DNA of 64,000 nucleotides, taken from assembly GCA_038248855.1 (NCBI GenBank), contig JBBRXA010000005.1, forward strand, positions 22,930 through 86,929, read 5' to 3'. This DNA is from Bacteroidales bacterium. Its GTDB lineage: Bacteria > Bacteroidota > Bacteroidia > Bacteroidales > VadinHA17. The position numbers were made by a program, and so were the translations under genes. Shown one piece after another: positions 1,902 through 61,051 of the stretch (the first letter of the stretch is position 1; every line of letters begins with the position of its first letter). The notes beneath the pieces are model-generated. The model was not told the DNA's origin, made no database searches, and worked only from the letters and a program-made list of their open reading frames with translations.

Positions 1902-3209
1902 TTGGTCCTTCTGCTGGCTGCAAGTGTCTCCCGGGCATTTGCACAGGATCTGGCTGAGATTATTTCCGGGGAGGTAAAAAAGTCTCTCCCGGGAGCGGAA
2001 GCGCTATACAGGGACCTTCATCAGAATCCTGAGCTTTCACTTCAGGAATTCAGAACGGCCTCTAAGATGGCTGATGCTCTTCAAAAGATCGGGTTTAAGG
2101 TTACAACAGGTGTAGGCGGTAACGGGGTTGTGGGTGTTTTCACAAACGGTAAGGGTCCGGCACTGATGCTCAGGACTGACATGGACGCCCTGCCTGTTAA
2201 AGAGATGACAGGGCTGCCTTTTGCCAGTAAAGTTATCGCGCGGGACAGCCGCGGTATTGAGACGCCCGTTATGCACGCCTGCGGCCATGATATTCATATG
2301 ACTATCTGGCTGGGGACTCTCGAGACGCTTGTGAAGCTGAAAAGCAGGTGGAATGGCACAATCGTAGCCGTTGCACAGCCTGCAGAAGAAGTAAGCGGCG
2401 GTTCAGGGGAAATGATTGCTGACGGCCTTTTTACGCGTTTCCCTGTGCCGGATTATGCTCTCGCATGGCATATCAGCCCGGATCTGCCAGCAGGCACTGT
2501 CGGTTATTACCCGGGCCCTATTTTTGCAGGCGTCAACTCCGTGGATGTGAAAATTTTCGGCGTGGGAGGTCATGGCGCAATGCCTCACAAAACCATTGAT
2601 CCCATAGTGCTTACCGCCAGAATAATACTCGATTATCAAACTATTGTCAGCCGTGAGATCAACCCGGTCTCCCCTGCCGTTGTGACGGTAGGGTCTGTTC
2701 ATGGAGGTTCAAAGCATAACATTATTCCTTCGGAGGTTGACCTACAGCTTACAATCAGATTCTTCACTGATGATGTATACCGCCAGATCATGACTGCGCT
2801 TAAACGGATTACAGAGGGTGTTGCATATTCAGCCGGTCTCACGGATGAGCAGTTGCCGGTAATTACTGCGGGAAAAGAGTATACGCCCCCTGTGGCAAAT
2901 GATCCTGATCTTGTAAAAAGGGTTGCATCATCAATCAGCACCGTCCTTGGAAAGGAAAATACAATCCTGGTTGACCCTTCCACCGTTGCCGAAGACTTCG
3001 GCAGATACGGACGTACCCCTGAAAATGTGAAGATAGGGCTGTTCTGGCTCGGCGGAGCCAACCAGGCCAGATATGATGAAAGCAAACTCAAAAATACGAT
3101 TCTGCCTGCTCTTCATAGTCAGACATTCCATCCTGATTTCGAGCCCTCCTATGTTACCGGTGTTGCTTCAATGACCAGGGCGGTTATTGACCTCCTGCAA
3201 TCCAAATAA
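1902..3209 (+). CDS. M20D-family amidohydrolase/peptidase (N-acyl-amino-acid amidohydrolase-like), secreted
   Basis: 435-aa ORF with the M20 metal-site motif MHACGHD and a signal-like N-terminus ending AFAQ. The track start is a TTG. An in-frame CTG at 1881 would give a better signal peptide (MKKSILILVLLLAASVSRAFAQ). No ATG exists downstream of the in-frame TAA at 1845-1847. Confidence 0.85.
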   Translation: MVLLLAASVSRAFAQDLAEIISGEVKKSLPGAEALYRDLHQNPELSLQEFRTASKMADALQKIGFKVTTGVGGNGVVGVFTNGKGPALMLRTDMDALPVKEMTGLPFASKVIARDSRGIETPVMHACGHDIHMTIWLGTLETLVKLKSRWNGTIVAVAQPAEEVSGGSGEMIADGLFTRFPVPDYALAWHISPDLPAGTVGYYPGPIFAGVNSVDVKIFGVGGHGAMPHKTIDPIVLTARIILDYQTIVSREINPVSPAVVTVGSVHGGSKHNIIPSEVDLQLTIRFFTDDVYRQIMTALKRITEGVAYSAGLTDEQLPVITAGKEYTPPVANDPDLVKRVASSISTVLGKENTILVDPSTVAEDFGRYGRTPENVKIGLFWLGGANQARYDESKLKNTILPALHSQTFHPDFEPSYVTGVASMTRAVIDLLQSK

Positions 3210-3962
3210 TCACAGCCCCAGCAAATCCATCACCCCGTTAATGAAAGTTAGCGGATGAGCCGGATTACCCGGTACATAAAGATCTGTTTTGTGATCGCTG
3301 AGGAAGCTGCGGTTCAATGACGGGCTTCCGTCGAAAATGCCTCCGCTGATCGCATCAGAGCCAACCAGGATAATTATTTTAGGTGAAGGCACTGCCTGGT
3401 AGGTAAGCTCCAGGGCCCGTGACATATTTTCTGTTATGGGACCGGTGATTACAATTCCGTCAGCATGCCGCGGGGATGCCACAAACTCGACACCGTAACG
3501 CCCGAAGTCGAAGTTTACGTTTCCGATAGCGGCAAGTTCCATCTCGCAGGAATTATCGCCTCCTGCAGAGACCTGTCTCAGCTTCAGGGCTTTCTTAAAC
3601 AGTCTCCTGACATCTTTTCTGACAGTTGATTCGTCAAGCCTGAGCGGTTCCTTCCGGCCGGGGCTGATTATCAGATCCTCCCTCTTGTTTGCAGCAATCC
3701 GGTAATCGTTCAGGAACCTGATCCTTTCCGGCAGCAGAAATGCACATTCATTGCAGAATGCGCACCGGCCAAGATCAATCGCCCCGCTCTTACTGTCTAT
3801 CGCATTTAACGGGCAAAGGGCGGAAACCAATTCTATCTCCTTCGGGGTAATTCCATCAGAGATCACCGGCAGGCCCCTGAAACGTTCTGACACAGTTTGT
3901 TTCCTAAGGTCTTCAATATATTGCCTTCCATGGTCCCGTATTACTCTCAGTTCTCTTTTCAT
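3210..3962 (-). CDS. NuoB/HycG-like small subunit of a Hyf/Ehr-like membrane complex, with an N-terminal ferredoxin-relic extension; most [4Fe-4S] ligands substituted
   Basis: The C-terminal 120 aa has the NuoB/hydrogenase small-subunit pattern (SPRHADGIVITGPIT, ISGGIF, YVPGNPAHP). The ligand positions read GGDNSCEME, GSDAISGG and PGNPAHP where CxxC, GxCxxxGG and PGCPP are expected. The N-terminal ~125 aa carries CP(50) and CAFCNEC(67-73). Confidence 0.8.
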   Translation of the reverse strand: MKRELRVIRDHGRQYIEDLRKQTVSERFRGLPVISDGITPKEIELVSALCPLNAIDSKSGAIDLGRCAFCNECAFLLPERIRFLNDYRIAANKREDLIISPGRKEPLRLDESTVRKDVRRLFKKALKLRQVSAGGDNSCEMELAAIGNVNFDFGRYGVEFVASPRHADGIVITGPITENMSRALELTYQAVPSPKIIILVGSDAISGGIFDGSPSLNRSFLSDHKTDLYVPGNPAHPLTFINGVMDLLGL

Positions 3963-3983
3963 TTTACATTTTCCTTTATGTGT

Positions 3984-5510
3984 CTAAAGGTCATGACCGC
4001 AATATGAAAGGTTGAAGCTCTTGTTGCAAACCGGGAAATCGGATATCTCCTCTCCCCTGACAGCAAGTGCCAGCATCATCCAGTTATGGACTGAGGGATC
4101 CTTGATCCTGTACAATGAAAAATTGCCGTCAGACTCCGTTACTGCGCAGTGGCATATCTCACCCCTCCATCCTTCGGTCAGGCTTACACCAAGCATTCCC
4201 GGCTGAAACTTTAACGACCACGACGGTTTTGGTGCTTCGTTGCCGGTATTGTCTCTCAATGCTGCAAGCAGCTTGATGACAACTGAATAGGAAAGTTCAA
4301 ATTCCACTTTTCTCATCACTGCGCGGGCCAGCACGTCGCCGGATTCAAGCATGGCAGTTTTATAATGAAAATCACGGTACGCCTGGAAAGGATGTGAAGC
4401 GCGCACATCACGGTTCAGGCCTGCTGTTCTTGCGGCCATTCCGACCGCCCCTGATTTCCTTGCCTGGATCAGCGAGACCGTACCTGTATTCTCAAAGCGT
4501 GACAGAATGCCTGCATTGCCGTAGATAAGATCAGTGACATTTATAAATCTTCTCTTGATCTCTTCAAGGTTTCGGGTCAGAATGTCAATCATTTCCGCCG
4601 ACAGGGGATAATTTGTTCCTCCCGGCCTTATCAAGCCCTTGCCGAATCGGTTCCCGCACCACTCCTGTGTGGAATTTATGATCAGGGTCCTGAGTGCCTC
4701 GCAGGTTACCTGTCCCTGCTGGTACCCCACATCACCGCACAGTGCGGCAGTGTCACCCGTATGAACGGCCATACGCTCCATCTCAAGGGCCACGATGCGT
4801 TCAACCTGCAGGATCTTTTCCGGTACGCTGCCTGAAAGCGCCTCCGCCAGCTGTGAAAATGCAAGAGCATGACCTGCTGCAGTATCGCCGGCGATGCTTT
4901 CAGAAAGAACCGACAGCTGATGTAAACTTCGCTTTTCGGAAAAATGTTTTTCAATTGCCCGGTGCTGGTATCCCAGCTGTATTTCAAGATGCAGGATATT
5001 TTCACCGTGACATATAAACCTGAAATGACCGGGCTCAATGACGCCGGCATGTACAGGTCCCACCCCCACTTCATGAACCTCTTCGCTGTCAATCGTGTAA
5101 AACGGATAGGTGTCCATCGACAACCCGGTATCAAACCTGTCGTGCGGGTATCTCACCGGCTTCATCCAGGGGTGTCCTGCAAAATCAATTCCCAGGGTTT
5201 CATGGATCTCCCTTTCGAAGATGTGCATGGGATAGGAGACTGCTGAAATGGATTTCAATGATCGTACCAACTTCTCCTGGACATGTGAGAATATGAAGAT
5301 ACTGTGTGAATCGTCGGAAGCAATAAGGATATAAAACCGAAGTTTCTGCGATGCAGAGTGTACGAAATAGTTCACTACATGATTGCCCTTTTTATTCAGC
5401 AATGCAGTGGTCTGGTCAAAGAATCCTCCGTAATCCAGCACCGGAATATCTTTAATATTTATTGCTTCCGGGTTATTCTTCATTGTGTAGTAGTCCATGG
5501 TCTGGTTCAT
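3984..5510 (-). CDS. NuoC-NuoD fusion / HycE-HyfG-like large subunit lacking the NiFe-binding cysteines
   Basis: 508 aa. It carries the group-4 hydrogenase / complex-I 49-kDa signatures GPVHAGVIEPGHFRF and LGYQHRAIEK. The L1 site reads ESIAGDTAAGH instead of RxCGxCxxxH. The C-terminus reads SFNLSYCGHDL instead of DPCxxCxxR. It overlaps the upstream gene by 4 nt (ATGA). Confidence 0.85.
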   Translation of the reverse strand: MNQTMDYYTMKNNPEAINIKDIPVLDYGGFFDQTTALLNKKGNHVVNYFVHSASQKLRFYILIASDDSHSIFIFSHVQEKLVRSLKSISAVSYPMHIFEREIHETLGIDFAGHPWMKPVRYPHDRFDTGLSMDTYPFYTIDSEEVHEVGVGPVHAGVIEPGHFRFICHGENILHLEIQLGYQHRAIEKHFSEKRSLHQLSVLSESIAGDTAAGHALAFSQLAEALSGSVPEKILQVERIVALEMERMAVHTGDTAALCGDVGYQQGQVTCEALRTLIINSTQEWCGNRFGKGLIRPGGTNYPLSAEMIDILTRNLEEIKRRFINVTDLIYGNAGILSRFENTGTVSLIQARKSGAVGMAARTAGLNRDVRASHPFQAYRDFHYKTAMLESGDVLARAVMRKVEFELSYSVVIKLLAALRDNTGNEAPKPSWSLKFQPGMLGVSLTEGWRGEICHCAVTESDGNFSLYRIKDPSVHNWMMLALAVRGEEISDFPVCNKSFNLSYCGHDL

Positions 5511-6949
5511 TTCAGGTTTATGACGGACAACGGAAGATGATTGTCAAGACCGGATATCGAAGAAAAGAGTCCGGCAAGAAAATCAGGAAGATAGAAACAG
5601 GCAATGACAGCCAGTCCGAAAAAGACAATTTGTGAAAAATATTCGGAAAACGGTACGGTGCCGGTCTGCTCATGAGCCGGCAGTGGATTTCCCATAATCA
5701 CCCTGAGATTCTTGTTGAAAATCCCGTAAAAGATGAGGGTCAGCAGAACGGCAACTGTCAGAAACACCAGCCAGTGACTGTTAATCATCTCCTTAAAGAG
5801 CAGGAACTCGCTCAGGAACAAGCCTGAAGGCGGAATGGCGGTGATGAGAATTACGCCTGACAGTAGGATTACAGCACCTGCCGGATTCAGCGCAAGGTAC
5901 CCCCCCGTCTTGGAAATCTTATATGACTTGAGTACACGATGTAAAATTCCGGCATGAAAGAAGAGCCCTGACTTAATCAATGAATGAACTGTAATCTGGA
6001 TAAGGGCTATATAAATTCCGATTTTACCGAAGCTTAACGCAATCAGTACCAGACCCATATGCTCAACAGTTGAATACGCAAACACGCGTTTCAGATTACT
6101 GGCCTTCTGCATATAGATGGCAGATGCAAGGAGAGAAAGCAACCCGGTAATGAGAAGCACAAGATTCATCCATTCCGTGATCGGTGAGTCAGCCATCGAT
6201 GCAAATACCCTGAAGAAAGCAATGAATCCGCCGTTAACCAGTGCAGTTGAAAGAAAAGCGCTTACCGGCGCCGGCGCCACGTAGTTTGCATCAATTCCGA
6301 TAGTGTAAAGAGGAAATACCTCAAGTTTCGAGCTGTAACCGGTCAGAATAAGAACGAAAGCAATTTTCAGGTATACAGGGTCAATTCCTGCAAAGGACCT
6401 CCTCAGGCTTTCGAATGACATATCACCTGTTTGCCCTGCACCCGGATTGGCGCTGGCGAAGAGAATCCCGATGTATGCAAGGGCGATTCCCACTGAACAG
6501 ATAAAGACATATTTCCAGGTGGCTTCCAGCGATGTAAGGGACCTGTTATGGTTGATAAGTCCTGCAGCTGAGAGAGTGGTCAGCTCGATAAATATCCAGG
6601 AAACAATGACATTATTTGCCGTATAAACACCTGTCAGTGAAATATTCAGGGCTATGAATGAAAAAAAGAAAAGAGCCCTTTTCCTGCGTGAATCATCCCT
6701 GACGTAACCTATACTGTGATAAAAGGAGGCGGCCGCAATCAGCGACATAAGCAATAAAAAGACAACGGCCAGGGCATCGTACGTAAAATAGCGGAAATCG
6801 ACCTTATCCCTGTTTAACAGGGCATAAACGGAAAACGCGGCCTGCAGAACGATAAAGGTAAAGGTGTAAACCAGGGAACTTCGCTTTCCGGGATAAAGAA
6901 GGATAAGGCCTGCAATGATTAACCCGACTATGAAGTATACGCCAACCAT
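5507..6949 (-). CDS. HyfF/NuoN/NuoM-like antiporter-type membrane subunit
   Basis: 480-aa polytopic protein with proton-antiporter-module signatures: WIFIELTTLS, GYSSKLEVFPLY, YSTVEHMG, VHSLIKSGLFF. Confidence 0.85.
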   Translation of the reverse strand: MVGVYFIVGLIIAGLILLYPGKRSSLVYTFTFIVLQAAFSVYALLNRDKVDFRYFTYDALAVVFLLLMSLIAAASFYHSIGYVRDDSRRKRALFFFSFIALNISLTGVYTANNVIVSWIFIELTTLSAAGLINHNRSLTSLEATWKYVFICSVGIALAYIGILFASANPGAGQTGDMSFESLRRSFAGIDPVYLKIAFVLILTGYSSKLEVFPLYTIGIDANYVAPAPVSAFLSTALVNGGFIAFFRVFASMADSPITEWMNLVLLITGLLSLLASAIYMQKASNLKRVFAYSTVEHMGLVLIALSFGKIGIYIALIQITVHSLIKSGLFFHAGILHRVLKSYKISKTGGYLALNPAGAVILLSGVILITAIPPSGLFLSEFLLFKEMINSHWLVFLTVAVLLTLIFYGIFNKNLRVIMGNPLPAHEQTGTVPFSEYFSQIVFFGLAVIACFYLPDFLAGLFSSISGLDNHLPLSVINLK

Positions 6950-7578
6950 CAGTCAGTAAGTTTTGTCAGGCTTTCGGCTTCAAAACCGCCCATTTTATGA
7001 CCTATCCTGGTAAGGAAGATACTCATGATCAGGACGGCGATAAATATGTCAAGCAGGATTCCGGCATTAACGAGAAGCGGAAATTCCTTCCCGATAGCAA
7101 TTGAAAACAGGAATACCGAATTCTCGATTATCAGGAAACCTACCAGGTGGCCGAATATAAGTTTACGCACGCTGATCAGGATGAGACCGGTAAACAGGGT
7201 AAGAAATGCAATTACCAGGAATGCACTGTCAACCATTGGTATGGCAAGAATCCGGGCAAGAAGCAGGCTTATTCCCAAAGCTATGATCATAATAATCACA
7301 GTATAGTTTCCCGGCAGCGATCTTTTATGAACGTTCCGGATTCCCGTTCTCTCGAGAATCTTCCTGAGCATGTAGGGAACAACCAGCGATTTAAACAGAA
7401 CGGTTTCCAGTAAAATGAAGATCAGGTTGATAAAGGTAAAGTTCTCCAGTTGCGTGAGGGCTATTCCGAACAGCAGGAATCCCTGGATCATGTAAACCTG
7501 GATATAGGTGCTGAACTTCTCGGTTGCTGCTATGTACACCAGGGAAATACCGAATAAGACATATAGCATAACTCCCAT
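6949..7578 (-). CDS. HyfE-like small polytopic membrane subunit
   Basis: 209 aa with about 7 hydrophobic spans. The call rests on its position between the NuoH-like and NuoN-like genes, as in hyf operons. It has a 1-nt overlap (TGATG) with the downstream gene. Confidence 0.6.
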   Translation of the reverse strand: MGVMLYVLFGISLVYIAATEKFSTYIQVYMIQGFLLFGIALTQLENFTFINLIFILLETVLFKSLVVPYMLRKILERTGIRNVHKRSLPGNYTVIIMIIALGISLLLARILAIPMVDSAFLVIAFLTLFTGLILISVRKLIFGHLVGFLIIENSVFLFSIAIGKEFPLLVNAGILLDIFIAVLIMSIFLTRIGHKMGGFEAESLTKLTD

Positions 7579-7579
7579 C

Positions 7580-8482
7580 TCAGAAAATATTTTTGGTGAA
7601 TAGTATTACAACGAAAAACAATACCGAAATAAGAGTCACGGTAAGGATATATTGCTGATTCCTGTTCATCTTGAATCTTGTTCTGAACGACTCGCTGAAA
7701 CCTATTGCAACTGAGAACAGAAGCTGTACCGCAAAATAGAGACTTACCCTGACAGCCGGAGGCAGGTCCCGGGGAATAACCGCCGATGCAATAAGGCTCC
7801 CGAAAATTGCAAATTTAAGCATGGATGTCAGTTGTATCATTGCGAGGTTGAACCCGCTTGTATCAAGTACCATAACCTCGTGAATCATAGTCAGTTCAAG
7901 GTGGGTCTTCGGATCATCTACCGGAATACGGCTGTTTTCAACAAGAGTGATATTTCCGATTATGTAAGCAACTATCAATCCGAAAACCAGGCTGTAACCC
8001 TCATTCTGAGAAAGATTGAAAATGGAAGAGAGAGAAAACTGTCCGGTAAAAACCGTGAGGCCCGCAATGAGGATGAAGAGAGCCGGTTCAATCAGCATGC
8101 CGTACAGTGCTTCCCGGCTGGCGCCCATACCTTCTAAACTGCTTCCGCTGTCAAATGCGGTAATTATCATCATGAATCTGCCCAGCGCCATCAGGTAGGC
8201 AAACAGGATGAAATCTCCCCTGAATGAAAGCAACGGTTTGAATCCCGCAACAGGAACCATCAGCGAAGCGACCAGAAGAGCGGCTATGATTACAATGGGT
8301 GCAATCCTGCTGATAATACCTGAAGTCTCGCTGTAGACAGTCACTTTCCTTATCAGCACCATGACATTATTCACAGGTTGAAATATACCCGGCCCCTTAC
8401 GTCCTGACGAGATGCTCTTGACCCTGATTATCAGTCCGGTAGTCATTAGTGAGGTAATCAGTATCAATAAAATTGCAATCAT
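7580..8482 (-). CDS. NuoH/HycD/HyfC-like membrane subunit
   Basis: 300-aa polytopic protein with NuoH-family patterns SSLEGMGASREALYGMLIEPALF and LVENSRIPVDDPKTHLELTMIHE. Confidence 0.8.
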   Translation of the reverse strand: MIAILLILITSLMTTGLIIRVKSISSGRKGPGIFQPVNNVMVLIRKVTVYSETSGIISRIAPIVIIAALLVASLMVPVAGFKPLLSFRGDFILFAYLMALGRFMMIITAFDSGSSLEGMGASREALYGMLIEPALFILIAGLTVFTGQFSLSSIFNLSQNEGYSLVFGLIVAYIIGNITLVENSRIPVDDPKTHLELTMIHEVMVLDTSGFNLAMIQLTSMLKFAIFGSLIASAVIPRDLPPAVRVSLYFAVQLLFSVAIGFSESFRTRFKMNRNQQYILTVTLISVLFFVVILFTKNIF

Positions 8483-8496
8483 TTTCCGGATTCCTG

Positions 8497-10458
8497 TCAG
8501 ATTATTTTCAAAATGGTGAGTAAAAAGATTAAAACCATGAACATCAGGGCATAAAGAACATAATGCTGCAGTTTACCGGTCTGCATCACGGCTGCCCTCC
8601 TGAGCAGATTGACAATGTAATTGGCCGGTCTCATAATAATTTTCGATCTGAAAAAATCAGATGAGCTTGTATGAAAATCACGTTCTTCCGGGAAGATTTC
8701 CTCCGGTTTATAAGTAATGTTCGAGGCCCCGTTTTTGATTACAGGCCTGATCAACCCGGCATATTCCTGGATAAAAGATGTTGCAGTATACTGCTGCCTT
8801 TCATTTACCGCTGTATAACCGCATCCCCAGGTGGGGCCCTGAACAGGTTTTCTCCTCATTTCGAAGAGTTTTCGTATCAGCCAGACTGTCAGGACGGCGC
8901 CAATCATTATCGCTGCAGCAAGGGACAGGTATTTAACAGGCGTCATTATCGGTTCAGGATCAAACATTCTAACGCTGTCAAATTGATCCGAAGCAATGCC
9001 TGTCAGAGGGCCTACCGTCAGGGCGGGGACAACGCCTATGAAAATAATCAGTATTACCGGCAGGATTTTGGCGCTAAGCATAATTCCCGAAGCTTCTGCA
9101 GTGTGCTCAGGCAATTTTGTCCGCGGCTGGCCAAGGAACATTATACTGAATACCTTCGTAAAGCAGAAGATTGCCAGACCGCCTATGAGGACAAGGGAGG
9201 CCATAGCAACCGTAAAGATCAGAAGTGGATAAAACTCAAGACTGCCGATGCCGGTGAACAGGGAGAAGTAGACAAGATATTCTGAGACAAAACCGTTAAA
9301 GGGAGGTAATCCGCTTATGGCAATTGACCCTATCAGGAAGGATAAGGCAGTATACGGCATAAATTTCATTACCCCTCCCATCTTCTCAATATTCCTGGTA
9401 TGCAGCTGTTGAATTACAGATCCGGCACTGTAAAAGAGCAGAGATTTGAAAAGCGAGTGGTTAAGTGTGTGAAGAATGGCTCCCGTGTAACCGGCTACGG
9501 AAATAAGGCTATTGCCTATGGCATTCCCAAAAATACCCAACCCGATACCTATGCCAATAATGCCAATATTTTCGATACTGTGGTAGGCAAGCAGTTTTTT
9601 AATATCATGCTGGAAAATGGCCATCATCACACCGAAAAGGCCAGTTGCCGCCGAGTACACTATCACTATTATCCCGATGTAATACATGTCTGACTGAAGG
9701 TACATGCTGACACGCAGAATACCGTAAATACCTAATTTGATCATCACCCCGGACATTATTCCTGAGACATGCGAGGGTGCTGCAGGATGAGCCTCAGGAA
9801 GCCAGGTATGAAGCAGGATGAATCCCGCCTTGAGCCCGAAACCAATGAAGAAGAGCAGAAAAACAGGCCAGTTGGGAAAATCGCGAAAATAAACCGTAAG
9901 ACTGTCGAAAGAGATGTTTCCTGACCCCTTTGAAGATATGATCAGGGCAAAAAGTATAAAGAGCATCCCGATGTGCATCTGAACCAGATAGTTAATCCCG
10001 GCCGCCATTGTGCCCTTAATGTCATAATCAAAAATGACAAGTACAAATGATGAAAGGGTCATTAACTCCCATGCGATCAGAAAACTAAAACCGTCCCTGA
10101 AAAGTAACACAGCCACCATCGATATCTGCAACCAGGCAAGAGCCAGATAATGAAGTCTGAGCCAGGCGGAGGGTTTACTCTGAACATGCGGTTTCAGGTA
10201 ACCTGTCGAATATATAAAACCGGTGGCAGCTGTAAAATTAATTATGAGGATGAATACCGCACTCAGCCTGTCGCACGTGATAGCACCAGGAAGGCCGATA
10301 TCAGGCATCACCCCGCTTACCAGAACTTCTATGGCCAGCCACGAAGTCACTGATATGGCGAAGAAAATAAAAATACCTGTCAGAATCAGTGAGACCCTCC
10401 TGTTGAATGCCAACTGAGTAATCGCTATAACAAACAGATAAACAAGCAAATAAGACAT
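8497..10458 (-). CDS. NuoL/HyfB/HycC-like antiporter-type membrane subunit
   Basis: 653 aa with signatures FLIAWELMTLSSF, GFGLKAGFILLHTWLPEAHPAAPSHVSGIMSG, LAYHSIENIGI, LNHSLFKSLLFYSAG. It is the first gene of the six-gene cluster. Confidence 0.85.
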   Translation of the reverse strand: MSYLLVYLFVIAITQLAFNRRVSLILTGIFIFFAISVTSWLAIEVLVSGVMPDIGLPGAITCDRLSAVFILIINFTAATGFIYSTGYLKPHVQSKPSAWLRLHYLALAWLQISMVAVLLFRDGFSFLIAWELMTLSSFVLVIFDYDIKGTMAAGINYLVQMHIGMLFILFALIISSKGSGNISFDSLTVYFRDFPNWPVFLLFFIGFGLKAGFILLHTWLPEAHPAAPSHVSGIMSGVMIKLGIYGILRVSMYLQSDMYYIGIIVIVYSAATGLFGVMMAIFQHDIKKLLAYHSIENIGIIGIGIGLGIFGNAIGNSLISVAGYTGAILHTLNHSLFKSLLFYSAGSVIQQLHTRNIEKMGGVMKFMPYTALSFLIGSIAISGLPPFNGFVSEYLVYFSLFTGIGSLEFYPLLIFTVAMASLVLIGGLAIFCFTKVFSIMFLGQPRTKLPEHTAEASGIMLSAKILPVILIIFIGVVPALTVGPLTGIASDQFDSVRMFDPEPIMTPVKYLSLAAAIMIGAVLTVWLIRKLFEMRRKPVQGPTWGCGYTAVNERQQYTATSFIQEYAGLIRPVIKNGASNITYKPEEIFPEERDFHTSSSDFFRSKIIMRPANYIVNLLRRAAVMQTGKLQHYVLYALMFMVLIFLLTILKII

Positions 10459-10517
10459 TCTGCTTTACTGAAATTCCAGCAGCGAAAGTATACAATTTTT
10501 AAATAAAACCCTAAATC

Positions 10518-11978
10518 TTATACTTCAAGCTGATTGGTACTTCCTTCAACGCTAAGAACTTTCGTTGTGCCGCCCTGGAGAAGGTTCGGATCCACAGGCT
10601 TGTTAGCGGTATACGACCCGCAGGTAAAATCCGGAACATCAATTGAAGAAGACCTGTTGGCGACTGACCACTCGCTCAGAGGTGTTATTGAGCTCCACAG
10701 GGCTGCATCATAAACATCCTGATCAAGCGGCAGTCCGTTGCGAAGGCAGTCTATCAGCCTCCAGTCCATAATGAAATCCATTCCTCCGTGGCCTCCCACA
10801 GCTTTGGCCATTTCGCCCACCCTTTTTACTATTTCCGGGGTATACTGTGCCTGAAAGGCTGAAAATTCTTCAGGTGTAGCCCAGGAATGCCCCAGGGCAA
10901 TTCTCTCCGGATCAGGCCATTTACTTGCCATTCCCTTTGTACCGCTTATAAGATGTATGCGGGAATAAGGTCTGGGACTTGTCACATCATGCTGGATCAT
11001 AATAGTTTTTCCCGCAGATGTTTTTACTGTTGTAGTGTTCATGTTGCCGCGGTATTTTTTACCGGTAAAAGGTTCGAAGAAGGGATCTTCCTTAGCAAGT
11101 ACATCAAGTTCGGCAGCCATCTGGAAGTCATTGGATGAAATTGAAGTGAGATAATCCATTTTATCTCCCCGGTTTATATTCATGATCTGGCATACGGGAC
11201 CCAATCCGTGTGTGGGATAAAGGTTTCCGTTGCGGAGGTTCTCTTTCAGTCGCCACATGTCCGCATAACCATTCTTGTCAAAATTCAGGAACCGCAGGTC
11301 GTGAATATACGCGCCTTCGGCATGTACCAACTCACCGAAGAGGCCCTGGCGTGCCATATTAAGGGTTAAAAGCTCAAAGAAATCATAGCAGCAGTTTTCC
11401 AGCTGCATGCAATGCTTCCTGGTGCGTTCCGATGTTTCTACAAGCTGCCAGCTCTCCTCGAGTGTCACAGCTGCCGGCACCTCAGTGGCGGCATGTTTTC
11501 CGCATTCCATTGCGTAAACGGCCATAGGAGTATGCCACGCCCACGGGGTGCAAATGTATACAAGGTCAATATCAGGATCTTCGCACAGTCCCTTCCAGGC
11601 TTCCTCGCTGCCGCCATATGATCTTGCCTGCGGAAGTCCGAATTTGGTGAGCATTGCCTGCATTTTATCAACCCTGTCACTGAATTTGTCGCACAGGGCA
11701 GCCACTTCTACTCCTTCGATATGAGTCATGCGCTCCACAGCACCCGGACCTCTCATACCGAGCCCGATAATCCCGACCCTCACCTTTTCAAGAGTAGGTG
11801 CGGCGAACCCGCTCATATTGAATTTCTGGGTGTGCTTTGCCGTCACAGCCTTCATTATTTCTGGCATGGCAACTTCGGCTTCCCTTCCGGAAGCACATGA
11901 AACAACGGCTCCTGCGGCCACGGCACCAGCACCTGCAACTGCGGCAGTGCGGAGAAAATCTCTGCGGTTTGTCTTCAT
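10518..11978 (-). CDS. TAT-exported Gfo/Idh/MocA-family NAD-binding oxidoreductase (GH109-like)
   Basis: Twin-arginine signal NRRDFLRTAAVAGAGAV followed by VVSC (possible lipobox). Rossmann motif VGIIGLGMRG. The overall architecture is typical of Bacteroidota GH109-type enzymes. The GH109 assignment is tentative. Confidence 0.75.
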   Translation of the reverse strand: MKTNRRDFLRTAAVAGAGAVAAGAVVSCASGREAEVAMPEIMKAVTAKHTQKFNMSGFAAPTLEKVRVGIIGLGMRGPGAVERMTHIEGVEVAALCDKFSDRVDKMQAMLTKFGLPQARSYGGSEEAWKGLCEDPDIDLVYICTPWAWHTPMAVYAMECGKHAATEVPAAVTLEESWQLVETSERTRKHCMQLENCCYDFFELLTLNMARQGLFGELVHAEGAYIHDLRFLNFDKNGYADMWRLKENLRNGNLYPTHGLGPVCQIMNINRGDKMDYLTSISSNDFQMAAELDVLAKEDPFFEPFTGKKYRGNMNTTTVKTSAGKTIMIQHDVTSPRPYSRIHLISGTKGMASKWPDPERIALGHSWATPEEFSAFQAQYTPEIVKRVGEMAKAVGGHGGMDFIMDWRLIDCLRNGLPLDQDVYDAALWSSITPLSEWSVANRSSSIDVPDFTCGSYTANKPVDPNLLQGGTTKVLSVEGSTNQLEV

Positions 11979-13532: not shown

Positions 13533-14678
13533 ATGGATCAGGCAGCTCCCTCAATAATCCATATTGTCAGTTTCAATGTACCCTATCCTCCGGATTACGG
13601 TGGGGTTATGGATGTTTTCTACAAGATCACATCTTTGAGAAAACAGGGAATCGGAGTGATACTTCACTGTTTCAGTTACGGCAGATCGATGTCAAAAACG
13701 CTTGAGCGCGAATGCCTCAGGGTACACTATTACCAGAGAAACCTGAACCTTTTTCTCCTTTTAAGAAGACAGCCCTTCATTGTACTGTCACGTGAAAACG
13801 AGAAACTTCTCGCTGCCCTGAAAGCCGACAACCATCCGATAATTTTTGAAGGTATCCATTCAACGGCCTGGCTGGGTCATCCTTCGCTCAATGGAAGAAT
13901 GACGATGGTTCGTACACATAACATCGAGCATCTCTATTATAAAAATCTTGCCCAGTCAGAGAAAAATCCTTTCAGAAAGATTTTCTTCCAGACGGAATCG
14001 CGAAAGCTTGAACGGTATGAAACCCGTCTTTCTGAGGCATCACTGCTTTTACCCATTTCCCCCGGGGATACTGAATATTTCAGGACAAAATACGGTAAGG
14101 CACTCTTTATCGGTCCTTTCCACCAGTCTGATAAGTGTGTTTCATCATTGGGCAAAGGAAACTATATACTCCTGCACGGCGACCTTTCAACTCCTGAAAA
14201 CAACGCCTCCGCCTTGTATATAGTACGAATGGTGGCTTCAAAGTGGCGTTACCGGACGGTTCTGGCAGGCAAGAGACCGTCAGCCGAGCTGATGCGGGCG
14301 GCATCTGACTTCAAAAATATCAGGATAATATCCAATCCCTCCCAGTCTAAGATGATTGAACTTATCCTCAACGCGCAGATATGCATTTTGCACGCATCGC
14401 AGCCCACCGGAATGAAACTGAAACTTATCAATGCAATATGTTTTGGAAGACACATTATCGCCTCAGAACCGGTTGTGTCCGGCACCGGGCTTGAAAGCCT
14501 TGTAAGTATTGCCTACAGAGGTGAGGATTGGATTGATCTTTCCTCCAGACTCATGGAGACCGGTTTCACTGATGATATCATCCGGAGGAGAGACGTTCTG
14601 CTTCGTAAAGTAGCAGATAATCAGGCCAATGCAATCAAGATCATTGAGTCCATCAATAACCACAATGTACACCCTTAA
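13533..14678 (+). CDS. Glycosyltransferase (GT1/GT4-type, mannosyltransferase-like)
   Basis: 381 aa. The N-terminus IIHIVSFNVPYPPDYGGVMDVFYK is typical of a Bacteroidota GT-B subfamily. It is divergent from the GT4 gene. Confidence 0.7.
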   Translation: MDQAAPSIIHIVSFNVPYPPDYGGVMDVFYKITSLRKQGIGVILHCFSYGRSMSKTLERECLRVHYYQRNLNLFLLLRRQPFIVLSRENEKLLAALKADNHPIIFEGIHSTAWLGHPSLNGRMTMVRTHNIEHLYYKNLAQSEKNPFRKIFFQTESRKLERYETRLSEASLLLPISPGDTEYFRTKYGKALFIGPFHQSDKCVSSLGKGNYILLHGDLSTPENNASALYIVRMVASKWRYRTVLAGKRPSAELMRAASDFKNIRIISNPSQSKMIELILNAQICILHASQPTGMKLKLINAICFGRHIIASEPVVSGTGLESLVSIAYRGEDWIDLSSRLMETGFTDDIIRRRDVLLRKVADNQANAIKIIESINNHNVHP

Positions 14679-16726: not shown

Positions 16727-17614
16727 TCACTCTTCTGCCTTTTCAAGTACAGGCTTCCCTTTACGAATCTTTACAACTCTGCATACCAGAGTGCTGCCTG
16801 CAGGTACTTCTGAAAGAGTCAAAGTGTGGCTGAAGCCGTTGTCATCGAAGCCGTCACAGATAAATCCTTCACCGGTCTCCAGCGGTGTGCAGGAAGCCAC
16901 GGTGACCCGCATTCTATCTCCCGGTTTAAACCACGGATTTTCTGGCTCAACGGTTTTACGGCTGCCGCTGCTGTATCTCACGATCTTACCCCTGAAAGAG
17001 GCGCCCACCTTAAACCCGTAATGTGAATAGTACCTGACCCGCAGGAGGTGTATATCACCATAGATATCAACTGCAGCATAACAGGGTTCATCATCGGGGC
17101 CGGAAACTGTCTTTATAATCCTGAAATCGTAACTTTTGCCCTCATCAAGCCTTTCCAGATCATCTGCCTCCCTTCTCCGGGTGAAGTACAGTTTACCCTT
17201 GGAGATCCGTTCGACCACCAGGCTTAACTTTTCTCCTTCCTCCTGCAATCCGGCCATGAGCTCCACAGGTACATTTATGAGGTTGCCGAGCATGTCAGAA
17301 ACGGTTGCACTACAGCACCTTATCCCGCTACTGTCAGTGTATTCTGATTTATACCTCACATCGAAACCGTAGCTCTCCCCTTCATTGTAAAAGGGGTTTG
17401 CAGGTTCAAGGAATACCTTGCCACTGCAGTTTATTTTATCGATTTTGCACTGTACAGGGCCCGGCGAAACAAGATTATAACCCCGGTAACACGAAAGCGG
17501 TAAAAGGTATTTTTTGCCGTCCGGCCCTCTAAGCATAAGGTTAACCTCCCCGCCCGGAAGTTCAACAGTCTTTACAGCGTTGAACGTATATGTTTTTCCC
17601 TCCTCTAGTTTCAT
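16727..17614 (-). CDS. Hypothetical protein with an internally duplicated A-B-A'-B' architecture
   Basis: 295 aa. Residues ~3-75 and ~147-225 are visibly paralogous (EGKTYTFNAVKTVELPGG...EPANPFY versus EGKSYDFRIIKTVSGPDD...EPENPWF). No family was recognised. Confidence 0.6.
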   Translation of the reverse strand: MKLEEGKTYTFNAVKTVELPGGEVNLMLRGPDGKKYLLPLSCYRGYNLVSPGPVQCKIDKINCSGKVFLEPANPFYNEGESYGFDVRYKSEYTDSSGIRCCSATVSDMLGNLINVPVELMAGLQEEGEKLSLVVERISKGKLYFTRRREADDLERLDEGKSYDFRIIKTVSGPDDEPCYAAVDIYGDIHLLRVRYYSHYGFKVGASFRGKIVRYSSGSRKTVEPENPWFKPGDRMRVTVASCTPLETGEGFICDGFDDNGFSHTLTLSEVPAGSTLVCRVVKIRKGKPVLEKAEE

Positions 17615-24574: not shown

Positions 24575-26182
24575 TTATTTTTTTTCTGCCACTTCGGTTT
24601 TCTTATTCCTTGAGGCAGTCTGAATGCATTCTCTCTGTGCAAGGATCACTGAGACGCCTCTGTAAGCAAGTTCTACCTTCATTACTGAAACGTTCTCATC
24701 ATGGTTCTTTCTGAGAGGAACAATAATTCTCAGATGATCATGATTCACTCCCAGTCCGAGACAGATGCTCTCGAGTCTCCCTGTTGCCTGTGACGACTGT
24801 CCTCCGGTCATTCCGGTGGTGGAGTTATCAGATATAATTACCGTAACCGGTGAGTTTTTGACAACTGCGTCCAACAGTCCCGTCATTCCTGAATGTGTGA
24901 AAGTGGAGTCTCCTATAACGGCAACAGCAGGAATAAGTCCTGCGTCAGAAGCGCCGATGGCCATCGTTACGGACGCCCCCATATCTACACACGAGTTTAC
25001 CATGTTGTAGGGCGGCAGGGCTCCGAGGGTGTAACACCCTATATCTGAAAATACTCTTCCCGGGCCCGCCTCCTTCAATGCTTCGCTCAGAGCGGCATAT
25101 ACATCTGCATGTCCGCACCCCTTGCAAAATGAAGGCGGCCTCTGCTGTACAAGGTGCGGAACATCCCTGTTCTTCGGCACAGTCATTCCCAGAGCTTTGG
25201 CAACAATGGCGGGACTAAGTTCCCCGTCACGGGGAACGGTGCCGTCGAGGCGGCCAAGCACTTTTACATCCCTGTCAAGCATGCCCCTGAGCTGCTCTTC
25301 AATAAACGGGAATCCCTCTTCAAGAACCAGCACCCGGTCACAGCTGCTGACAAGTTTTTCCACCAGCCTTTTATCAACCGGATAAGCAGCAACGGACAGG
25401 ACATTGTATTTCTTTGCTGTGTCACCTGTGTTTTCGAGAAGGTAGTTATAAGCGATGCCGCAGGTGATTATTCCTGTATCCTTATGTGAACCGCATGACA
25501 GCCTGTTGTATGCTGAAAGTTTGCTGTCGCTTCTGAGCGCCTCATATGTTCCGGTCAGAGCTCTGTACTGTTTTCGGGCAATTGCCGGCAGAAGCACGAA
25601 CTGCCTTGGATTATCCGGGAGGGCAAGATTGTTCTGACTGATCTGTTCGCGTCTTTTCACTGACGACCTCGAATGCGCAAGACGGGTTGTAATGCGGTAA
25701 AGAACAGGCAGCCTGTATTTCTCGGATATTTCAAAAGCCTCAAAGACCATATCATAGGCTTCCTGCTGATCACGCGGTTCAAATACCGGCACAAGAGCAA
25801 ACTTTCCGTAGAACCTCGAATCCTGTTCATTTTGTGATGAATGCATAGAGGGATCGTCAGCAGAAACAACTATGAGGCCACCGTTAACACCGGTAACCGC
25901 TGAATTGATGAATGCATCCGCAGCAACATTAAGTCCCACGTGCTTCATTGACACCATTGCCCTGCGGCCGGCATATGACATTCCAAGCGCTGCCTCTGTG
26001 GCTGTCTTTTCATTGCATGACCATTCACGGTGTACTGCCCCTTCAGATGCCTGCCCCGAAGCCTGTATGTATTCCATGATCTCAGTGGAGGGTGTGCCCG
26101 GGTAACCGTACATGCCGCTCATGCCGGCATCCAGCGCTGCCTGCGCAATTGCCTCATCACCAAGCAACAATAGTTTTTGCAT
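24575..26182 (-). CDS. iorA: Indolepyruvate:ferredoxin oxidoreductase, alpha subunit
   Basis: 535 aa with LLLGDEAIAQAALDAGMSGMYGYPGTPSTEI and the TPP-binding region GDSTFTHSGMTGLLDAV. Confidence 0.85.
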   Translation of the reverse strand: MQKLLLLGDEAIAQAALDAGMSGMYGYPGTPSTEIMEYIQASGQASEGAVHREWSCNEKTATEAALGMSYAGRRAMVSMKHVGLNVAADAFINSAVTGVNGGLIVVSADDPSMHSSQNEQDSRFYGKFALVPVFEPRDQQEAYDMVFEAFEISEKYRLPVLYRITTRLAHSRSSVKRREQISQNNLALPDNPRQFVLLPAIARKQYRALTGTYEALRSDSKLSAYNRLSCGSHKDTGIITCGIAYNYLLENTGDTAKKYNVLSVAAYPVDKRLVEKLVSSCDRVLVLEEGFPFIEEQLRGMLDRDVKVLGRLDGTVPRDGELSPAIVAKALGMTVPKNRDVPHLVQQRPPSFCKGCGHADVYAALSEALKEAGPGRVFSDIGCYTLGALPPYNMVNSCVDMGASVTMAIGASDAGLIPAVAVIGDSTFTHSGMTGLLDAVVKNSPVTVIISDNSTTGMTGGQSSQATGRLESICLGLGVNHDHLRIIVPLRKNHDENVSVMKVELAYRGVSVILAQRECIQTASRNKKTEVAEKK

Positions 26183-36639: not shown

Positions 36640-36664
36640 TGGATTATGTGAGGTCCGGACAAAT

Positions 36665-50736: not shown

Positions 50737-50761
50737 TTGTAACTGGATTATTTTTTCCGGT

Positions 50762-58489: not shown

Positions 58490-58501
58490 AGGTCTGTGAT
58501 T

Positions 58502-58667: not shown

Positions 58668-58674
58668 TACTCTT

Positions 58675-61033: not shown

Positions 61034-61051
61034 TGTCTGCTTAAAATTTTC

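Follow-up and report, generated by a model that had tools for sequence, protein, structure and literature searches.

Ehr complexes (Ech/energy-converting-hydrogenase-related) are already known from at least 595 species genomes in many phyla. The Geobacter complex is encoded by the ehr genes GSU0739-45, and its subunits are named EhrA-1, EhrC, EhrL, and EhrS. The first-pass annotation of the present DNA stated that Ehr has no assigned role, and none was found in the searchable literature. In the window, which is the whole stretch of 64,000 nucleotides analyzed here from a Bacteroidales bacterium, six co-directional, tightly coupled genes occupy 3210-10458 on the minus strand, like all features of the ehr region given below. 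Their products of 653, 300, 209, 480, 508, and 250 aa resemble HyfB, C, E, F, G, and I, respectively. Rechecking the ORFs gave the same coordinates, lengths, strand, and junctions as before (from ehrA to ehrS, gaps of 14 bp and 1 bp, overlaps of 1 nt at 6949 and 4 nt at 5507-5510, and a last gap of 21 bp), and the codon coordinates and motif strings were verified by translation. The Pfam and NCBIfam E-values of the six proteins were far past chance level. The B-C-E-F-G-I synteny was shared by nearly all of 80 loci, including those of Geobacter, Geomonas, and Pelobacter, which bears out the Ehr-like assignment. The operon encodes an Ehr complex, whose subunits EhrA, B, C, D, L, and S correspond to HyfB, C, E, F, G, and an H-I fusion.

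An AT-rich intergenic region of 59 bp upstream of ehrA (10459-10517) is a possible promoter as read from the sequence; a sigma-70 scan of it, which is uninformative for Bacteroidota, gave nothing above shuffled expectation. The operon may be co-transcribed with the upstream GH109-like gene. Among the window ORFs of at least 200 aa that were scanned, none was a hyp, fdh, nuoEFG, or endopeptidase gene, as had been claimed for maturation and input-module genes. The sole conserved ehr neighbor was an HTH + PTS-EIIA regulator, seen in other phyla.

The four membrane subunits were compared with solved structures and with the family. EhrA (8497-10458, 653 aa) is a HyfB-HycC-like antiporter-type subunit with a C-terminal extension (Pfam Proton_antipo_M, E=1.9e-50), and it scored 509 bits against NCBIfam hydrogenase-4 subunit B, under the cutoff of 667. 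Its closest solved structure was HycC (7z0s_C, 1.5e-58), with which Glu131 of TM5 (WELMTL), Lys210 of TM7 (GLKAGF), and Lys338 of TM12 (HSLFKS) aligned; E131, K210, K241, H330, H334, K338, and E393 were invariant in the family. EhrD (5507-6949, 480 aa), a HyfF-like second antiporter-type subunit (Proton_antipo_M, 4.7e-38), was aligned to MbsH, MbhH, and NuoL, and Glu122 of TM5 (FIELTTL), Lys208 of TM7 (SSKLEV), and Lys326 of TM12 (HSLIKS) fell in the canonical columns and were all invariant across the family. EhrB (7580-8482, 300 aa) is a HyfC-HycD-MbhM-like (NuoH-type) membrane subunit (Pfam NADHdh, 1.1e-22) that matched HycD (7z0s_D, 4.2e-20) and shared with it the loop 'D(S/T)GS...GASREA'; its family invariants were D111, E117, R123, E124, E132, E182, D189, D190, E196, E202, and D207. 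The HyfE-like small membrane subunit EhrC (6949-7578, 209 aa) matched the NCBIfam hydrogenase-4 membrane subunit at 1.7e-12, under the cutoff, and had no match in the Pfam profile search. It has the invariants K63, E152, and D177 and the lowest dN/dS among the six genes (0.027). These results showed that the membrane subunits retain the full Glu/Lys/His relay of complex-I/Mrp-type ion translocators, in agreement with the earlier claim that the ion-translocating subunits are intact.

The large subunit EhrL (3984-5510, 508 aa) joins a NuoC-like domain at its N-terminus to a HycE/NuoD-like domain without NiFe ligands (Pfam Complex1_30kDa and Complex1_49kDa, 1.2e-30). Its closest solved structure was HycE (7z0s_E, 1.5e-31), its AF2 model had a pTM of 0.81, and its homologues formed 515 clusters at 50% identity (E<=1e-30). 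The former NiFe L1 motif now reads 'ESIAGDTAAGH' (E204-H214, 4869-4901). In the phmmer alignment to solved structures, 'RVCGICGFAH' of HycE corresponded to 'SIAGDTAAGH', with the two Cys replaced by Ala207 and Thr210. The former L2 motif and C-terminus (3984-4028) translate as CNKSFNLSYCGHDL followed by the stop codon; 'SLDPCY' of HycE corresponded to 'SFNLSY', with Cys replaced by Ser502 and the following Cys position occupied by Gly505. Four-Cys relatives carry 'NKSFELCYSC.D[RL]' in the same frame. All four Cys columns are thus substituted, as had been proposed, and EhrL is clearly predicted to be unable to bind NiFe. In their place is a near-invariant new residue set, found across phyla (n = 78): E204 (77), G208 (78), D209 (78), T/S210 (77), K497 (78), S502 (78), Y503 (77), G505 (77), and D507 (77), with L508 as the final residue in 75 of the 78. 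The hydrogenase-frame residues of the second sphere (E159-P-G-H-F-R, H214, and D507) are retained. Judged from this conservation over phyla, the former NiFe pocket is re-fixed and not decayed. AF2 monomer models were of low confidence precisely at this pocket and at the former proximal cluster site.

The small subunit EhrS (3210-3962, 250 aa) combines a HycF/NuoI-like ferredoxin domain with a NuoB/HycG-like domain. Residues 138-246 matched Pfam Oxidored_q6 (3.2e-19) and residues 43-101 gave weak NuoI/HycF matches, while some homologues matched Fer4_13 or Fer4_15. By Foldseek, the C-terminal half resembled NuoB/MbhJ and the N-terminal half resembled HycF (7z0s_F, 107 columns, E=4.5e-4). Three of the four proximal [4Fe-4S] Cys are replaced in the alignment to the solved-structure HycG, as the first-pass annotation had it. 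At Asp136 (3555-3557), 'CGGCNGCEIE' of HycG became 'AGGDNSCEME'; at Asp203 (3354-3356), 'GACGNSGG' became 'GSDAISGG'; and at Asn233 (3264-3266), 'PGCPP' became 'PGNPA'. The remaining Cys139 is kept here but is dispensable in the Bacteroidota clade, where it varies (A, Y, T, V, H, G, S), so a residual proximal cluster is unlikely there.

The same annotation had described the arm as redox-dead, with both redox sites lost. The loss of the proximal and NiFe ligands stood; a third site was overlooked, since a HycF-like, ferredoxin-like domain at EhrS residues ~30-100 retains an intact four-Cys motif, C50-P51 ... C67xxC70xxC73 (3744-3815, translated as CPLNAIDSKSGAIDLGRCAFCNEC). This motif, here called cluster B, is predicted to bind a [4Fe-4S] cluster. 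C50, C67, and C70 were present in 68/68 sequences across phyla and C73 in 67/68, and all four Cys were present in 121/121 close homologues; the AF2 pLDDT of residues 31-120 was 79-96 in 10-residue blocks. From the loss patterns, cluster B is probably the middle cluster.

The distribution of these motifs was then compared. A census counted 29 forms with three clusters, 8-10 with two (lacking cluster A), and 29 with one, and cluster B was lost in none. All four proximal Cys were kept in every CCCC-type sequence (n = 39; 37 from other phyla and 2 from Bacteroidota). In these, columns 136, 203, and 233 were Cys in 39/39, versus Asp in 27/29, Asp in 29/29, and Asn in 29/29 of the Bacteroidota clade; the close homologues (n = 121) had 121 Asp, 118 Asp and 3 Glu, and 121 Asn, respectively. 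Proximal-cluster loss is therefore not general to Ehr, as other phyla retain this cluster. In a tree with the ligand columns masked, the DxDN clade was exactly monophyletic (29/29), with a CCCC-type Bacteroidota sequence as its sister. These patterns indicate that the Asp/x/Asp/Asn state marks one exact Bacteroidota clade, with a single origin and subsequent fixation, and that EhrS of this type, as read from its motifs, retains the middle motif alone, both cluster A (distal) and the N2-like proximal cluster having been lost. While the Ehr family itself is known, this 'one-cluster' subtype, confined to Bacteroidota, was previously undescribed.

The Bacteroidota Ehr is most likely a redox-independent or redox-sensing proton/cation translocator. 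Judged by complex I geometry, cluster B would lie >20 Å from the EhrL pocket. Since both neighbors of cluster B are gone, there would be no electron path to the pocket, and the complex would thus not be run by internal electron transfer. The membrane module would move H+ (or Na+/H+). The polar pocket, formed by E159, H162, R164, E204, D209, T210, K497, S502, Y503, D507, and the C-terminal carboxylate, would probably be a protonation- or ligand-controlled gate acting via the HycD-like subunit, and the surviving cluster B could have a structural role or act as a redox/O2 sensor. The net role might be pH/ion homeostasis or ion-gradient interconversion. We give this reading as a whole, a one-cluster Ehr with pocket-gated ion translocation, a probability of about 0.5.

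An oxidoreductase that pumps like Ech, MBH, or MBS is unlikely, but part of the evidence fits it. Cluster B, invariant in all sequences, would take electrons from ferredoxin or flavodoxin, and a substrate or unconventional cofactor at Asp136/Asp203/Asn233 or in the EhrL pocket would drive pumping. The fixation rather than drift of Asp, Asp, and Asn suggests that something is bound there, and a redox path could be restored by an unknown cofactor or metal held by this set. Other phyla keep the complete wire, the window contains at 24575-26182 a 2-oxoacid:ferredoxin oxidoreductase alpha-like gene, and Geobacter Ehr subunits go up on formate. However, Cys139 is variable within the clade, and distal cluster A, the likely docking or entry cluster, is lost too. 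No conserved redox-partner gene was found near ehr, and DxDN-type operons have no conserved adjoining partner or cofactor-biosynthesis gene. We know of no [4Fe-4S] site with Asp/Asp/Asn and a dispensable fourth ligand, which also counts against an oxidoreductase.

By analogy with the CO2-hydrating Cup/DAB modules on complex-I-type subunits, the EhrL pocket might instead run or control a cofactor-free or hard-metal reaction coupled to ion flow, such as hydration/dehydration or group transfer. The pocket residues are equally invariant in the DxDN and CCCC subtypes, with or without the Fe-S wire; the change from Cys to small residues (Ala, Thr/Ser, Ser, Gly), together with the new invariant Asp209, would open a polar cavity, and the retained second sphere also fits. 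We regard such catalysis as quite doubtful, because it comes without a candidate substrate, no conserved enzyme or transporter neighbor was found (a SulP-family transporter was near ehr in just 4/80 loci), and the three clusters of other phyla are left unexplained.

A vestigial or decaying complex is highly improbable. A 2026 Geobacter paper (PMC13194489) took Ehr to be 'nonfunctional' and expected relaxed selection, and 4/80 loci had fragmented ORFs. However, dN/dS was 0.03-0.11 (dS 0.43-0.64) in all six genes, which showed strong purifying selection. The other 76/80 loci were intact, and the fragmented ones also had fragmented flanks, indicating long-read assembly error. With dozens of Ehr residues invariant across phyla and every Geobacter Ehr subunit detected as protein, decay is effectively refuted. 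A true H2-evolving hydrogenase of the Hyf/FHL type, its metal held by unusual ligands, suggested by the gene order, the FHL identity of the closest solved structures, and the source-database label 'Ni,Fe-hydrogenase III large subunit' of homologues, has practically no chance, since Cys is missing from all four NiFe ligand columns both here and family-wide, all NCBIfam equivalog cutoffs are missed, hyp and endopeptidase genes are absent from the scanned ORFs, and EhrL stops at the mature C-terminus without a cleavable extension, and the earlier rejection of a [NiFe]-hydrogenase or formate hydrogenlyase is upheld.

The strong selection despite the loss of two of three clusters suggests that Bacteroidota Ehr, a complex-I-like machine, functions with no internal electron wire, and the first proposal, in which a redox-dead arm would drive or gate the membrane module, is a reasonable hypothesis for this clade. 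Because selection keeps all three clusters of the wire in other phyla, the ancestral Ehr function probably uses electrons, and the Bacteroidota type may have undergone a change of function rather than revealing the common one. As a lead only, a related 'group 4f' complex of Methylocystis was induced at pH 5 (log2FC 4.2-4.5). Mrp transports ions without a peripheral arm, yet Ehr conserves its arm and pocket strictly. This runs counter to pure ion transport and is a hint that real chemistry or binding of a ligand takes place there. The polar pocket of Ehr sits at the position from which, in its relatives, coupling is triggered by NiFe or quinone chemistry.

The six minus-strand ORFs at 3210-10458 were called at 653, 300, 209, 480, 508 and 250 aa and are named here ehrA, ehrB, ehrC, ehrD, ehrL and ehrS. 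When the junctions were recomputed, the 14-bp gap, 1-bp gap, 1-nt overlap, 4-nt overlap and 21-bp gap described in the first-pass annotation were all reproduced. Profile searches assigned the proteins, in this order, to the HyfB/HycC antiporter-like, NuoH/HycD, HyfE, HyfF antiporter-like, NuoC-NuoD/HycE large-subunit and NuoB/HycG small-subunit types. None of them reached the NCBIfam equivalog cutoffs for Hyf/Hyc (HyfB 509 vs 667, HyfF 204 vs 533, HyfE 47.7 vs 136), and the hydrogenase large-subunit models of NCBIfam gave no match to any of the six, which indicated that these proteins are relatives of Hyf/Hyc/Nuo and not family members. The group-4 homology of EhrL was clear from phmmer against solved structures (HycE 1.5e-31, MbhL 2.1e-22) and from Complex1_49kDa (1.2e-30). 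The gene before the operon encodes a TAT-signal GH109-like oxidoreductase (10518-11978), and a convergent M20 peptidase gene follows downstream on the plus strand (1902-3209). The stop codons of ehrS (TGA, 3210-3212, minus) and of the peptidase gene (TAA, 3207-3209, plus) abut with no spacer. In a scan of 2900-10800, no terminator-like hairpin was found between these convergent genes, and sigma-70 promoter and terminator hits were not enriched over shuffles, the sigma-70 model being uninformative for Bacteroidota promoters.

The ligand columns were read from phmmer alignments to solved structures instead of a manual alignment. In EhrL, SIAGDTAAGH was aligned with RVCGICGFAH of HycE, placing Ala207 and Thr210 at the Cys positions, and SFNLSY with SLDPCY, placing Ser502 at the Cys position and Gly505 at the next one. 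The four NiFe Cys columns filled by A207, T210, S502 and G505 were likewise Cys-less in 78 cross-phylum and 119 close homologues. In EhrS, AGGDNSCEME replaced CGGCNGCEIE of HycG (Cys to Asp136, Cys139 kept), GSDAISGG replaced GACGNSGG (Cys to Asp203), and PGNPA replaced PGCPP (Cys to Asn233). The antiporter-like subunits had Glu, Lys and Lys at the TM5, TM7 and TM12 columns of HycC, MbhH, MbsH and NuoL, and the family alignment showed extensive invariant charged networks kept in the membrane subunits. Such an alignment had been set beforehand as the check on the first-pass annotation, whose observation of lost redox ligands beside intact ion-translocating subunits was confirmed throughout, as were its codon coordinates by translation. 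Both group 4 [NiFe]-hydrogenase motifs, L1 (RxCGxCxxxH) and L2 ([DE][PL]CxxCxx[RL]), were absent from EhrL, and together with the missed equivalog cutoffs this upholds the earlier view that the complex is neither a hydrogenase nor a formate hydrogenlyase.

The further description of the peripheral arm as redox-dead is not established, since the N-terminal domain of EhrS, which had been overlooked, keeps an invariant four-Cys motif. EhrS has about 130 additional N-terminal residues with weak NuoI/HycF profile matches, and some homologues gave Fer4_13 or Fer4_15 Pfam matches in the same region. The region was modelled by AlphaFold2 with pLDDT 79-96, and Foldseek on the predicted model superposed the N-terminal half on HycF (7z0s_F, 107 columns, E=4.5e-4) and matched the C-terminal half to NuoB/MbhJ. 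The HycF-like fold indicates that HyfH/HycF is not absent, but fused to the small subunit. The motif consists of C50-P51 and C67xxC70xxC73 (cluster B), and these four residues correspond to the fourth Cys of the first ferredoxin motif and the first three Cys of the second. In 2x[4Fe-4S] ferredoxins, such four Cys jointly ligate one complete cluster. Across many phyla, 67-68 of 68 sequences kept each of the cluster B Cys, as did 121/121 close homologues. The AlphaFold2 monomers confirmed the folds of the large and small subunits, with pLDDT below 50 at the EhrL pocket (117-168, 485-508) and the former cluster region of EhrS (126-165).

The complex is a member of the known Ehr class, hydrogenase-like complexes without NiFe ligands, as the first-pass annotation had recognised: the NiFe motifs are absent, the large subunit has group-4 homology, and the operon is orthologous to Geobacter ehrA-S. 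The class reportedly goes back to Coppi in 2005 and Marreiros et al. in 2013. EhrL had more than 8000 homologues in the database, the best 120 all being full-length, at least 55% identical and mostly from Bacteroidales MAGs. An exhaustive search of 1.84 billion representatives yielded 515 clusters at 50% identity (E<=1e-30), and a pattern scan with one genome per species confirmed at least 595 Ehr loci. The carriers listed include Bacteroidota, Geobacter/Geomonas/Pelobacter and other Desulfobacterota, Planctomycetota, Verrucomicrobiota, Spirochaetota, Melainabacteria, Elusimicrobiota, Omnitrophota and others. The order B-C-E-F-G-I (Hyf letters, ehrA to ehrS) was kept in nearly all of the 80 loci that were retrieved (numbered L0xx), among them those of Geobacteraceae, Geomonas and Pelobacter, sometimes with B duplicated. 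The nearest genome among the matches listed was L034, an uncultured Bacteroidales MAG with 91% amino-acid identity. Two paralogous hydrogenase-like complexes stand in tandem in a Geobacteraceae MAG, where a second, far more divergent B-C/E-F-G-I cluster lies directly downstream of the Ehr operon (L056:13281-20599).

A targeted literature search returned only genomic or proteomic mentions of Ehr, which is described as lacking NiFe ligands and of unknown function (PMC6349859, PMC10284858, PMC4758237). In Geobacter sulfurreducens, Ehr corresponds to GSU0739-45, with EhrA-1, EhrC, EhrL and EhrS named; all its subunits were detected by proteomics, with higher levels on formate, and its role "has never been investigated" (PMC7894505). 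The names ehrA-2 and ehrB are also used in the literature for this organism, whose full set comprises EhrA-1, A-2, B, C, D, L and S.

The former NiFe pocket was compared in 78 EhrL sequences at 40-91% identity. G208, D209, K497 and S502 were present in all 78, E204, T/S210, Y503, G505 and D507 in 77, and L508 was the last residue in 75; the loop E159-P-G-H162-F-R164 and C167 were likewise invariant. Five relatives at about 32-34% identity among the best 150 representatives (including P0372, P0373, P0388 and P0389) are the nearest Cys-containing kin. They read ERICG[VA]C..SH and NKSFELCYSC.D[RL], and thus keep all NiFe ligands, which the window lacks, within the same C-terminal frame and E-R-I-C-G context. 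These four-Cys relatives are probably HydDB group 4f/Ehf, and the literature puts Ehr adjacent to group 4f. The common frame suggests that Ehr descends from a specific hydrogenase lineage, likely that of the four-Cys relatives. Compared with this lineage, the Ehr pocket kept the second-sphere frame, exchanged its Cys for Ala/Ser, Thr/Ser, Ser and Gly, and gained the invariant Asp209. Such a combination argues for a repurposed pocket under selection and indicates that the site was rebuilt, not decayed.

The proximal cluster of EhrS divided the family. Its columns read CCCC in 39 sequences (37 from other phyla and two from Bacteroidota), and Asp/x/Asp/Asn in 29 Bacteroidota sequences including the window (DxDN-type), so that the intact proximal [4Fe-4S] motif of 39/39 others stands against D136/C139/D203/N233 here. 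In 121 close homologues, Asp136 and Asn233 were invariant, and position 203 was Asp in 118 and Glu in 3. The ligand columns were masked, and a neighbour-joining tree was built from concatenated EhrL and EhrS. The 29 DxDN sequences formed one exact clade with a CCCC-type Bacteroidota sequence as sister, which points to a single ancient loss and subsequent retention in Bacteroidales, Flavobacteriales, Saprospiraceae and related groups. Few positions separated the subtypes (T187C in the small subunit; R44H, G142S, A149G, L264Q, P265L and R291K in the large), and no compensating basic residue was obvious among them. As read from these columns, the DxDN state marks a subtype of Ehr, the intact proximal cluster being typical outside Bacteroidota.

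The Cys motifs of EhrS fell into a stepwise series. Outside the DxDN clade, 29 sequences had motifs for three clusters, with the usual eight-Cys 2x[4Fe-4S] ferredoxin domain and the proximal cluster. In 8-10 sequences from unrelated lineages, including Melainabacteria, Elusimicrobiota, Desulfobacterales and one Bacteroidota, the first ferredoxin cluster (cluster A) was lost, with cluster B and the proximal cluster kept. All 29 DxDN sequences retained cluster B only. Since cluster A was lost repeatedly and the other two persisted, we infer that A was the outer and B the middle cluster, a placement argued from the loss patterns alone, with no N6a/N6b assignment used.

The selective constraint on the operon was evaluated against L034. 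The dN/dS values (Nei-Gojobori) were 0.106 and 0.109 for two pieces of ehrA, 0.065 for ehrB, 0.027 for ehrC, 0.075 for ehrD, 0.085 for ehrL and 0.071 for ehrS, with dS of 0.43-0.64 for all. The ehrA gene of L034 has one in-frame TGA in a poorly conserved linker (L034:6530-6580, corresponding to about residues 497-504 of EhrA and about 8950-8970 in the window), splitting the protein into ORFs of 499 and 149 aa, both with dN/dS of about 0.11; this TGA may be a sequencing error, or else the C-terminal extension of EhrA is naturally split off there. Fragmented ORFs were found in 4/80 loci (L025, L028 and L031 among them), all from long-read MAG projects. Their flanking genes were fragmented too, as in L031, where the long-ORF (>=180 aa) coverage of the flanks was 0.00 and 0.47 compared with about 0.75 typically. 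The fragmented flanks point to assembly indel error, not pseudogenisation, as the probable cause of the broken Ehr ORFs. Decay of the ehr genes is thus ruled out by the dN/dS values and by the fragmented flanks of the fragmented orthologues. Ehr has been called non-functional and under relaxed selection (PMC13194489), and this claim is contradicted at the family level.

The genomic context was examined around the 80 loci, and no conserved redox partner was found near the Ehr operons among them. Neither large nor small (40-120 aa) ORFs gave a conserved partner of the DxDN-type, and the FDH/NuoEF neighbours suggested in the literature for some candidate phyla were not seen around these loci. The only recurrent neighbour was an HTH_17 plus PTS-EIIA (type 2) regulator gene directly upstream of ehrA in 15 CCCC-type loci, encoding about 235-262 aa at a median gap of 2 nt, in six or more phyla. 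An example is L049:4106-4894 (plus), with equivalents in L033, L035, L041, L046, L047, L053, L056, L060, L061, L063, L068, L069, L071 and L077. This gene never adjoined the DxDN-type operons in the 80 loci, and its position hints that outside Bacteroidota Ehr is under PTS(Ntr)-like control. A 771-aa SulP-family (Sulfate_transp) transporter was encoded about 1 kb downstream of Ehr at L007:17974-20289 and in three other loci; these 4/80 (three DxDN-type, one CCCC-type) are too few for an association.

In the 64-kb window itself, a scan of ORFs of at least 200 aa bore out the earlier statement that hyp, fdh, nuoEFG and endopeptidase genes are lacking, the remainder being housekeeping. A 535-aa protein with POR_N and TPP_enzyme_C domains, similar to the alpha subunit of indolepyruvate/2-oxoacid:ferredoxin oxidoreductase, is encoded 14 kb from the operon (24575-26182, minus) and could supply reduced ferredoxin within this genome. 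A CdaA-type diadenylate cyclase (35869-36711, minus), whose product c-di-AMP is tied to K+ and osmotic homeostasis, and a run of ion/metal transporter genes for an SBF-family symporter, a cation-efflux CDF protein and an ArsP-type permease (57449-61066, minus) are of contextual interest for an ion-homeostasis reading. Four ORFs had no Pfam match at E<=1e-5, namely 13533-14678 (plus, 381 aa), 16727-17614 (minus, 295 aa), 30946-31686 (plus, 246 aa) and 48700-50772 (minus, 690 aa).

Several features bear on the mechanism: the complex lacks the NiFe site and the proximal cluster, keeps a single conserved cluster motif and intact ion-relay residues, has a rebuilt and conserved polar pocket, and is under strong selection. 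In complex I, each hop between clusters spans about 10-14 Å edge to edge. In the DxDN subtype, cluster B would be without both neighbours and more than 20 Å from the EhrL pocket, beyond the range of physiological electron transfer. Such a complex would be unable to link the movement of ions to electrons arriving in the pocket, which favours a redox-independent proton or cation translocator. We give this reading a probability of about 0.5. The EhrL pocket and the HycD-like loops would then form a gate controlled by protonation or by a ligand, and cluster B, left on its own, would be structural or a sensor. More tentatively, the Bacteroidota Ehr might have its membrane arm coupled to a polar pocket, invariant and devoid of metal clusters, in which a non-redox ligand is bound or transformed or protonation is sensed.

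The strongest point against the translocator is that Mrp needs no peripheral arm, yet the Ehr arm is strictly conserved, a sign that the pocket carries out real chemistry or binds a ligand. A still-redox enzyme with an unconventional cofactor at the fixed Asp/Asp/Asn site is unlikely: the three residues are nearly invariant, but the Cys139 column varies inside the clade (Ala, Tyr, Thr, Val, His, Gly, Ser), making a residual cluster at the proximal site very unlikely. Non-redox catalysis in the EhrL pocket driven by ion flow is considered a little less likely again. Decay, for which the fragmented ORFs might speak and against which the dN/dS values stand, and a genuine hydrogenase, which has the group-4 homology in its favour and every lost NiFe ligand against it, are both effectively excluded, the latter most firmly.

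Several of these features were absent from the searchable literature, a scope outside which Marreiros 2013 lies: a monophyletic Bacteroidota subtype that keeps one cluster and has Asp/Asp/Asn fixed, the fusion of HycF and HycG in EhrS together with its invariant cluster, the graded series of three, two and one clusters, and the invariance of the pocket across phyla together with four-Cys relatives in a common frame. The family is under strong purifying selection with its former NiFe pocket rebuilt and not abandoned, and a large Bacteroidota lineage, including gut and rumen-type Bacteroidales, keeps the whole machine after losing two of three Fe-S clusters. In this lineage, as in a natural experiment, the coupling mechanism can be viewed apart from electron transfer. 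If ions are still moved, a conserved pocket and loops would suffice to drive or gate a complex-I-type arm with electron transfer unneeded. It would be the first natural case of the complex I/hydrogenase coupling machinery without a redox reaction, with a bearing on the long-standing question of redox-to-ion-pumping in complex I, MBH and FHL. The subtype also sharpens the question of Ehr function experimentally, as it predicts a single cluster visible by EPR, the absence of Ni, and phenotypes related to ions or pH. Furthermore, the database labels "Ni,Fe-hydrogenase III" and "NADH-quinone oxidoreductase subunit C" are corrected.

Among known systems, E. coli FHL-1 (HycB-G and FdhF; 7Z0S/7Z0T) and Hyf (FHL-2) were compared with the window. 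FHL gave the best solved-structure matches for the domains of five of the six subunits (HycC, HycD, HycE, HycG and HycF) and has the E-P-G-H-F-R loop and the HycD loop motif in common with it. In FHL, the NiFe site and proximal cluster are present, HycF is a subunit of its own, and HycB and a formate dehydrogenase belong to the complex, whereas the window lacks the NiFe site, the proximal cluster, HycB and FdhF, has the HycF-like part fused with one cluster, and possesses additional HyfE- and HyfF-like subunits. The MBH (6CFW) and MBS (6U8Y) of Pyrococcus furiosus also combine a peripheral arm resembling that of complex I with a membrane arm of the Mrp type; the NuoB-like domain of EhrS has its best sequence match in MbhJ (8.2e-22), and MBS demonstrates that such an arm is able to work without NiFe chemistry. 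However, MBH and MBS retain three [4Fe-4S] clusters, the proximal one among them, together with complete modules of the Mrp type (MrpB, C, E, F, G-like). The window has neither: its proximal ligands are absent, and MbsL (2e-15) and MbsJ (3.4e-9) were weak matches.

Complex I (NuoB/C/D/H/L/M/N) shares six subunit types of common ancestry and the identical lateral Glu/Lys relay with the window. It differs in the N2 cluster, whose four Cys were missing from EhrS in the alignments to NuoB, PSST and Nqo6, and the HyfC-like subunit EhrB is nearer to HycD than to NuoH. The profile search gave no match to the NuoA, NuoJ and NuoK families among the operon proteins, and NuoEFG is lacking. Gly208 of EhrL presumably occupies the column of the quinone-binding Tyr87 of Nqo4, by our own reading of the phmmer alignment. 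The Mrp Na+/H+ antiporter is the model for redox-independent cation/proton exchange through MrpA/D-type subunits, but it has no peripheral arm and requires MrpB, C, E, F and G; the profile search of the operon, which is flanked by unrelated genes, detected only MrpA/D-type Proton_antipo_M domains and none of these five.

Within the Ehr neighbourhood, a seven-gene "group 4f" complex of Methylocystis was up at pH 5 with a log2FC of 4.2-4.5 (preprint 10.1101/2025.08.29.672306). Its quoted motif fragment AARVS resembles Cys-less representatives such as AERVSGDE, and the Cys-less "SGDE" sub-pattern (P0365, P0383, P0390) may correspond to this complex. The acid induction points, as a lead only, to a role in pH homeostasis. 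Geobacter Ehr agrees with the window in the subunit order B-[B]-C-E-F-G-I, the absent NiFe Cys, the GD(T/S) and NKSFNLSYCGxDL motifs and the ferredoxin-NuoB fusion in EhrS, the Geobacteraceae and Geomonas loci being 40-42% identical. Geobacter has two EhrA paralogues and the upstream HTH-EIIA regulator, neither of which occurs in the window, and the Geobacter-type EhrS has four proximal Cys and usually a full 2x[4Fe-4S] domain, giving three clusters compared with one in the window type.
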